From a virus (taxonomy: Duplodnaviria > Heunggongvirae > Uroviricota > Caudoviricetes), in the IMG/VR virus record IMGVR_UViG_2541047122_000024: DNA of 4,078 nt, one strand, 5' to 3'. The position numbers were made by a program. Numbering within the stretch: position 1 is the first letter of the stretch; every line of letters begins with the position of its first letter. Positions 3,001 to 4,078 of the stretch are shown here, piece after piece.

Positions 3001-4078
3001 AATTAACGACGAGCTGTACCTCTCAATTTCGAAGCTGCAGGAGCATGCAGCACTGGTCTACAAAATTTTTTGCATTTCAGAAAGTAATGACGCCCGCGAG
3101 TGTGCAGCTCCGGGCGCCGTGGCGTGTCGTGACTGTGGAGAAACTAACGCATGAACAGTTTAACAACACACTACCGTCGCTCGCAACTGATTGCACTTCC
3201 TGTACCGGGTGGAAAAGCGAAGGTGGAGTATTGCTATGCAGTGAATGTACCAGGTGACAGGGAAATTGTAACCCACAGCTTTGCAGAGTGGGCTGTGGGT
3301 GATTTCAACAGGCAAAAGGAGACAGTCCTTTGCGACAAGTTAACCGCTGGTTCAAAGATCACTACGGAGTGCCCGTCAGAGTCATTCGTTGGGAACCGGA
3401 AACACAACGGGTTATCTACCTCCGCGAAGGCTATGAGCATGAGTGCTTCAGCCCGCTCGAACAGTTTCGTCGTAAATTCAGGGAAATAGAGGTCGGTCAT
3501 GAGCACTAAATTAACCGGCTATGTATGGGATGGTTGCGCTGCGTCAGGCATGAAGTTATCCAGCGTGGCAATTATGGCCCGCCTGGCTGATTTCAGTAAT
3601 GACGAAGGTGTGTGCTGGCCATCAATTGAAACCATTGCCCGCCAGATTGGCGCGGGGATGAGCACCGTCAGAACGGCTATCGCACGGCTGGAAGCAGAAG
3701 GCTGGTTAACGCGTAAGGCGCGTCGCCAGGGTAACCGCAATGCGTCGAATGTTTATCAGCTTAACGTTGCGAAGCTTCAGGCAGCGGCATTTTCTCAACT
3801 GTCAGATTCTGACCCGTCAAAATCTGACGCATCAAAATCTGACCCGTCAAAATTTGATGCGTCGAAATCTGGCAAAAAAGCGGGTTTTCACCCGTCAGAA
3901 TCTGGCGGGGATCCGTCAGTAAAATCAAAACATGATCCGTCAGATAAAAAACTGAACCGCCCCGGAAATCCTGGAGACTAAACTCCCTGAGAAAGAGGTA
4001 AACAGGATGACTAAAAATACTCTTCCCTTGTAGTGGTGGCTGAAGGCATGATGATTGTAGTGGCACACTGAATTTGGC

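Follow-up and report, generated by a model that had tools for sequence, protein, structure and literature searches.

Plasmid iteron origins, such as those served by RepA, pi and RepE, combine a winged-helix Rep protein with direct repeats in tandem and an AT-rich unwinding element beside them. As a rule their iterons are found outside the rep gene, measure 17–22 bp with roughly two-turn phasing, and are accompanied by DnaA boxes. In lambda, P22 and phage L the iterons lie inside the initiator gene and are different in each phage (PMC8022706): P22 gene 18 carries four repeats of ∼20 bp and phage L gene 18 carries six imprecise 11-bp repeats that have been proposed as its origin (PMC8022706).

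The Shiga toxin phages also carry non-lambdoid ‘Eru’ units, some of which encode HTH_36 proteins, and a 2022 survey states that the replication proteins and origins of these units are not understood (PMC8951638). The genome paper of Shigella phage SfIV describes the replication module of that phage and does not mention an origin (PMC3851460). Our searches of the literature on SfV, SfIV, phiP27, HTH_36 initiators and the motif strings reported below returned no published origin, binding or footprint; the SfV genome paper or the Weigel and Seitz review may mention one.

Here we describe a set of short repeats inside an O-like replication initiator gene of a lambdoid prophage. From the sequence evidence, and by analogy with lambda, we consider it highly likely that these repeats serve as initiator-binding sites (iterons) for a lambda-type origin located within the initiator's own gene.

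Results

The initiator gene and its truncation

The window, i.e. the whole 4078-base stretch of DNA that was analysed, is taken from a lambdoid prophage, of which it covers the immunity and early-right region. A cI-like repressor gene with an S24 peptidase domain (1560–2252, minus strand) is followed by a cro-like HTH gene (2350–2610), a gene for a CII/YmfL-type regulator (2603–3154), a 59-aa DUF4222 ORF annotated by RefSeq (3330–3509; DUF4222 match, E=8.6e-19) and the 5′ part (codons 1–151) of an O-like replication initiator gene (3499–3952, plus strand). Upstream of the initiator gene, a 112-aa ORF annotated in SfIV (3151–3489) overlaps the DUF4222 ORF in a different frame and gave no family match. 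Operator-like 15-bp sites of sequence TTGCGnGATAnGCAA flank the cI-like gene (1469–1483, 1491–1505, 2273–2287 and 2321–2335). Two exact copies, 22 bp apart, are found downstream of the gene, and between cI and cro there are a further exact copy and a degenerate one; their count alone is not significant. On the minus strand, the stretch at 521–743, located between a yfdR-like gene and small ORFs, matches the Rfam sRNA family STnc100 over its full length, scoring 43 bits, just short of the gathering score of 47 bits (E=3.6e-07).

Assignment of the initiator gene relies on its HTH_36 domain, on its PHROG matches and on homology to intact genes. The protein encoded in the window matches Pfam HTH_36 (PF13730) with E=1.5e-11 and 44.4 bits against a cut-off of 25. 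The PHROG families matched by the product of the gene at 3499 are ‘replication initiation O-like’ and ‘primosomal protein’; PHROG 11896 matches the first 100 residues of the window protein (E=1.7e-64), and PHROG 391, ‘replication initiation O-like’, matches the intact protein (E=1.6e-135). The DNA from 3499 to 3952 is 97–100% identical to part of intact 942-bp (313-aa) genes found in Shigella phages SfIV and SfII, Kati, several Escherichia phages and an O157:H7 prophage.

Homology to the intact initiator genes ends at 3952, inside the second of two A-rich repeats, and from 3953 to 4078 the window consists of insertion-sequence DNA, which starts with an IS end (TGAACCGCCCCGG...) and continues with the end of a second IS3-family element. 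Matches to this segment number in the thousands across E. coli genomes and plasmids, and the same composite of two IS ends adjoins an IS3-family transposase gene on pO157-type plasmids. The junction itself was found in no complete E. coli genome. The initiator ORF reaches 3981 solely by reading into the insertion-sequence DNA. Given the stop in homology at 3952 and the insertion-sequence DNA from 3953, the window gene is therefore a pseudogene cut after codon 151. Because the C-terminal domain of the initiator has been lost to the insertion, the putative origin in the window is a relic, which its own initiator is unable to fire, and for the purpose of annotation the window prophage is replication-defective.

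An in-frame array of 15-bp dyad repeats

A sequence-only reading of this DNA had claimed six 15-bp units within the initiator gene, and these were confirmed on the plus strand at 3799, 3814, 3829, 3844, 3859 and 3892. Searching both strands of the window with the pattern CCGTCAAAATCTGAC, at up to three mismatches, gave eight matches (two of them on the reverse strand) against 0.13 expected in all, and none of 200 shuffles reached eight; Tandem Repeats Finder likewise reports a period-15 array of 4.3 copies at 3808–3871. Five of the units are contiguous and head-to-tail (3799–3873), and we regard them as putative iterons from the repeat searches, their position in homologues and the fixation of their codons. 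They are followed by an 18-bp spacer (AAAAAAGCGGGTTTTCAC, 3874–3891, as read from the sequence) and by one distal unit recovered by pattern match (CCGTCAGAATCTGGC, 3892–3906). Within the gene, the whole array extends from +300 to +408, directly downstream of the sequence coding for the winged helix.

Each of the five contiguous units holds a 13-bp dyad of type GTCARAWTCTGAC (3801–3813, 3816–3828, 3831–3843, 3846–3858 and 3861–3873), and the distal unit contains the dyad GTCAGAATCTGGC. The GTCA-N5-TGAC symmetry that had been attributed to every unit is perfect in units 1 and 2, and in unit 1 it extends to a 6+1+6 palindrome (GTCAGA-T-TCTGAC; GTCAGATTCTGAC), but the other four units are degenerate at one or two half-site positions. 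The units also encode the pentapeptide repeat (D-P/A-S-K-S)n that had been read from them, the translation being SDS-DPSKS-DASKS-DPSKF-DASKS-G. With a period of exactly five codons, the array encodes a pentapeptide repeat and can gain or lose units in frame. No DnaA box with at most one mismatch was found at 3700–3952, nor are such boxes enriched in the window.

Two other candidates at the array were set aside. A sub-threshold match to an Rfam microRNA family was taken as an artefact of the palindromic units, and a terminator-like hairpin on the minus strand (3894–3881) was not conserved in homologues and was taken as chance.

A-rich GATC-headed repeats adjoin the array

An A-rich segment had been noted downstream of the array at 3917–3952. 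The segment is real, but it is not featureless, as it contains two GATC-headed repeats, and its end at 3952 is the insertion boundary. The two repeats (GATCCGTCAGTAAAATCAAAACAT and GATCCGTCAGATAAAAAAC) begin at 3910 and 3934 on the plus strand, 24 bp apart, and form a block from 3910 to 3952 in which the second copy is cut at 3952/3953. In the intact SfIV gene, the 40 nt equivalent to 3918–3957 have a GC content of 0.275, the lowest of any 40-nt stretch in that gene. Each 24-bp repeat opens with GATCC(G/A)(T/C)NA, which holds the left half of the iteron (CCGTCAG), and continues with A-rich sequence. We consider the A-rich repeats a candidate DNA-unwinding element. Several of these phages carry a gene for a Dam-type methylase just downstream.

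Predicted structure of the initiator

An AlphaFold2 model covering the 151 native residues in the window predicts an N-terminal winged-helix DNA-binding domain (residues 1–102, encoded by 3499–3804 on the plus strand), with helices at residues 5–16, 20–31, 43–50, 54–67 and 90–102 and a β wing formed by 70–73 and 85–88. Block-mean pLDDT values across residues 1–102 are mostly 75–88, with lower values for residues 1–10 and 71–80. The residues encoded by the repeats and by the A-rich block are modelled without secondary structure, with pLDDT below 50, and are thus predicted to form a disordered linker, which would explain the tolerance of a peptide repeat of variable length.

The nearest solved folds to the N-terminal domain are MarR-type winged-helix proteins; searches of solved structures by both sequence and fold gave generic matches of this type alone and speak neither for nor against a distant kinship with the N-terminal domain of lambda O. 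MarR-type winged-helix proteins bind palindromic DNA as dimers, and the modelled fold fits a picture in which dimers of the initiator domain would occupy the 13-bp dyads.

Conservation of the array and selection on its DNA

The comparison of homologous initiator genes that had been proposed earlier was carried out with eight homologues from phages and 80 from genomes, drawn from about 30 genera of enterobacteria. The genomic set includes an e14-like fusion without the region, and 88 genes, including that of SfIV, were usable. The 15-bp unit is conserved across them and the number of units varies, the outcome that the earlier reading had named in its favour, the longest run at 15-bp spacing ranging from two to ten units with a mode of five. 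Matches to GTCAAAATCTGAC with at most three mismatches occur in nearly all 88 homologues between +296 and about +491 of the gene, nearly all of them between +296 and +431. There are ∼420 such matches, 397 of which fall in the +300 and +400 bins, and about 20 stray matches occur in ∼270 kb of flanking DNA. Most homologues keep the distal unit in the form ..CC(G/T)(T/C)CAGAATCTGG.., and in most of them a gap of 33 or 48 bp separates it from the last unit of the array. The A-rich GATC repeats follow the array in all 88 homologues in one to three copies (two in 71 genes; e.g. SfIV, L001:4412–4459), and they lie 24 bp apart in 83 of 85 cases. In 69 of the 88 genes, the A-rich block contains the 40-nt stretch with the lowest GC content of the first 900 nt.

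The dyads might also be thought to act as hairpins, either in the mRNA, where they would govern how the initiator message is translated or how stable it is, or in single-stranded DNA, but we find this scarcely credible. The 163-nt segment folds far better than its shuffles (z=−5.9 as RNA and −4.9 as DNA), and there is a weak, spurious match to an Rfam hairpin family; however, any array of palindromic units yields fold scores of this kind, and hairpins formed by single units would have 4-bp stems. Because the long-range pairing depends on the number of units, which differs between homologues from two to ten, no single structure is conserved and the fold scores are no evidence for an RNA element.

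Codon usage in the repeats argues for a function at the level of DNA. To avoid circularity, the units were located for this analysis by their peptide pattern only. The first serine of the linker S-x-S is encoded by TCA in 329 of 371 instances (89%) and the second by TCT in 366 of 447 (82%). Aspartate is encoded by GAC in 213 of 247 instances where it precedes a unit, and by GAT in 163 of 172 where it heads an A-rich repeat and thereby creates the GATC. Outside the linker of the same genes, AGC is the commonest serine codon (32%), with TCA at 16% and TCT at 10%, and the GAT/GAC split for aspartate is 54/46. As a control, 54 conserved degenerate columns of the N-terminal domain gave a mean majority-codon frequency of 0.52 with a maximum of 0.85, so that, the repeats aside, synonymous sites are well randomised across this set of genes. 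Within the phiP27 clade (L008, at ∼2467; L009, at ∼2452; L087, at ∼1949; gene offsets 467, 452 and 449, respectively), one copy of the motif lies off-frame and encodes TLQNL or TRQNL, with DPSDS as its neighbours, so that the DNA motif is kept and the peptide is not; a single event in evolution probably accounts for all of these off-frame copies. Since codons are fixed by position and the motif is also retained off-frame, the sequences show that purifying selection acts on the repeat DNA itself, beyond the peptide.

These data bear on the proposal that the array is a mere low-complexity coding repeat, a flexible Asp/Ser/Pro/Lys linker arising by replication slippage, in which the DNA has no function. 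The predicted disorder of the encoded segment agrees with this proposal, as does the free variation in unit number that a tolerant linker would show. A linker of this kind would not account for serine codons fixed far above the N-terminal-domain mean across about 30 genera, for the opposite aspartate codon in the two repeat types, for a motif preserved in another reading frame or for the dyad symmetry of the units. We regard this explanation as very improbable, and the comparison of sequences already largely refutes it.

The N-terminal domain and the repeats as a module

The N-terminal domain and the repeats occur together with at least three types of C-terminal domain, i.e. a lambda-O-like type, Phg_2220_C (in phiNP, Flotzy, YeP1 and others) and a third type in phiP27, where genes for DnaC-like and DnaB-like proteins follow. 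This shows that the N-terminal domain and the repeats have been inherited together while the C-terminal domain was exchanged. The iteron core is GTCAAAATCTGAC in the clade with N-terminal identity of at least 72% and TTCAGAWTCTGAA/C in the clade with 58–69%; covariation between recognition helix and iteron variants is weak, as the core is nearly unchanged across N-terminal identities of 58–100%. Among distant HTH_36 initiators, three of four carry their own, different direct repeats at the equivalent position (Min27, three of 21 nt; RothD, four of ∼22 nt, some with dyad symmetry; a Vibrio phage, two of 15 nt), and SI8 has none.

Further observations were made on the same gene set. Many unrelated C-terminal halves (SfIV, phiNP, Kp ST101, Flotzy and KpnBHU6; L001:4001–4942 compared with L003, L005, L006 and L010) end in (V/N)(D/V)DYSxxPxGFR(G/S), and this shared tail may serve to dock a host factor. 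Recurrent deletion derivatives found in E. coli (the e14-like L068, and P0092–P0105) keep initiator residues ∼1 to 78–80, lack the iteron array and are fused to terminase (455 aa, ymfN-like) or RusA (138 aa). Near-enterobacterial versions of the module, with N-terminal domain identities of 61–89%, are present in five records assigned to non-enterobacterial hosts, namely Elizabethkingia phage EKP1 (L007), Vagococcus (L023), Chryseobacterium (L047), Martelella (L052) and Pseudomonas lundensis (L083), which suggests that these are contaminated or mis-assigned assemblies.

The array in the intact phage SfIV

In the complete SfIV genome (39.8 kb), every dyad match falls at 30745–30850, within gp41, which is the only recognisable replication gene of the phage, and this is also the only substantial tandem array in the genome. 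No other repeat cluster was found in the intergenic regions of the early-right arm of SfIV, and no helicase or loader gene was found in the whole genome. The gene that follows the initiator in SfIV and in the O157 prophage encodes a PerC-family regulator, and the replication neighbours in other relatives are DnaC and DnaB in phiP27 and a primase in EKP1.

That the repeat DNA is under selection and is inherited along with the N-terminal domain shows a function at the DNA level and does not specify which one. The repeats could bind the initiator or another phage protein for regulation, i.e. autorepression, a transcriptional roadblock, or copy control by titration or handcuffing, with strand opening taking place elsewhere, and the failure to find DnaA boxes or other host-factor sites at the locus is in keeping with such a role. 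On the other hand, the lowest-GC block of the gene lies directly beside the array and is itself conserved, there is no other iteron-like cluster in the early region or genome of SfIV, and the layout is that of lambda, where such elements are the origin. We therefore consider a purely regulatory role decidedly unlikely.

Discussion

Our results favour reading the repeats as the iterons of an origin, and the earlier interpretation of the locus according to the lambda paradigm is supported: all of its computationally testable expectations, i.e. position, dyad repeats, a low-GC neighbour, constraint on the DNA, modularity and uniqueness, were borne out. Binding, unwinding and origin activity, and with them the designation ‘ori’, are what we infer from the observed anatomy and conservation of the locus together with the selection on its DNA and the co-inheritance of repeats and N-terminal domain. 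The arrangement is of a known kind, found here in an uncharacterised lambdoid phage family (SfII, SfIV, O157 prophages and e14-like elements).

In an intact phage of this type, derepression would lead to transcription of the rightward early operon (cro-like, CII/YmfL-like, DUF4222 and O-like genes) and to synthesis of the initiator. Dimers of its N-terminal winged-helix domain would then bind the 13-bp dyads, at five adjacent sites 15 bp apart and at one distal site, and the resulting nucleoprotein complex would destabilise the adjoining A-rich, GATC-headed 24-bp repeats. The lambda-O-like C-terminal domain would bring in the host helicase machinery without a P gene. Several observations stand against this model, among them the weak covariation described above. 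At a spacing of 15 bp, adjacent sites face almost opposite sides of the helix, in contrast to the spacing of about two turns in many iteron origins, and SfIV-type phages are without a helicase-loader gene, so the step after binding is unexplained. Because the N-terminal domain has no detectable similarity to that of lambda O, the pairing of this initiator with these repeats is argued by analogy and co-inheritance only.

A further, rather unlikely possibility is that the in-frame array is a dual-coding device in which slippage changes the strength of the origin and the reach of the initiator together, and in which the GATC repeats additionally tie firing to Dam methylation. Each slippage event would then add or remove one binding site and five linker residues, and methylation would be provided by the host or by the methylase gene that often lies just downstream. 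As for the truncated copy in the window, superinfection by phages that share its replicon type could be hampered by the N-terminal fragment and iterons it retains.

If confirmed, the array provides a concrete, testable origin for a widespread and unstudied replicon type that is found in Shigella serotype-converting phages (SfII and SfIV), O157 prophages and temperate phages of Klebsiella, Citrobacter and Yersinia, and that is more distantly related to the HTH_36 ‘Eru’ units of Shiga toxin phages. It would also represent a clean natural overlap of a DNA-binding code and a protein code, with the constraint visible in codon choice.

Comparison with described systems

Of the described systems, the plasmid iteron origins share with this locus a winged-helix initiator, tandem direct repeats and an adjoining A-rich element, and differ in that the array here is intragenic, has a 15-bp period and is not accompanied by DnaA boxes. 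The Eru units encode distant members of the same N-terminal family in the same slot beside cI/cro, and Min27-type genes carry their repeats at the equivalent place, but these repeats differ in sequence and period from those in the window. P22 and phage L resemble the present case in that their lambdoid initiator genes also carry repeats of their own within the coding sequence. They differ from it in initiator family and in repeat sequence, and the published cases, like ours, are mostly drawn from sequence.

The likeness to lambda ori extends over several features. In both, the initiator gene itself houses the elements, where the coding regions for its N- and C-terminal domains meet (+348 to +432 in lambda, +300 to +408 here), direct repeats have internal dyad symmetry, and an A-rich low-GC stretch (31% GC in lambda, 27.5% here) directly follows the iterons on the same strand. 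The initiator gene is downstream of cro/cII-type genes, and intact relatives have a C-terminal domain homologous to the one in lambda O (SfIV residues 182–277 against O 187–270, within an alignment of E=1e-25), a domain that is absent from the window, where the gene is cut. Right of the iterons, +455 to +485 of lambda O (L096), the AT-rich end plus TTCGTCAGAGAA, aligns with +419 to +449 of the SfIV gene, AGTAAAATCAAAACATGATCCGTCAGATAA, at 23 of 30 positions, a score reached by 2 of 500 shuffles, and lambda GTCAGAGAATTCTGGCG resembles the distal unit GTCAGAATCTGGCG; this similarity may be a trace of shared ancestry in that part of the sequence.

There are also differences from lambda. The N-terminal domain is HTH_36 here, whereas that of lambda O is Phage_rep_O (PF04492, E=5.7e-36); PF04492 gave no match in the window protein or in the intact SfIV protein, and hhalign between the two N-terminal domains gave a probability of 0.8%, i.e. 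no detectable similarity. Lambda has four 18-bp iterons, which the N-terminal domain of O binds, 20–24 bp apart, in frames 0, 2, 2 and 1 and with no peptide repeat, whereas the 13-bp dyads here follow a strict 15-bp in-frame period that encodes one, vary in copy number from two to ten, and adjoin an A-rich part built of GATC-headed 24-bp repeats. SfIV-type phages also have no P gene, so that an adjacent P-type loader, as in lambda, is not part of the arrangement. With the layout of lambda, an HTH_36 N-terminus and no P gene, the comparison supports an oriλ-like element, one that would work like oriλ while lying outside the lambda O N-terminal family.
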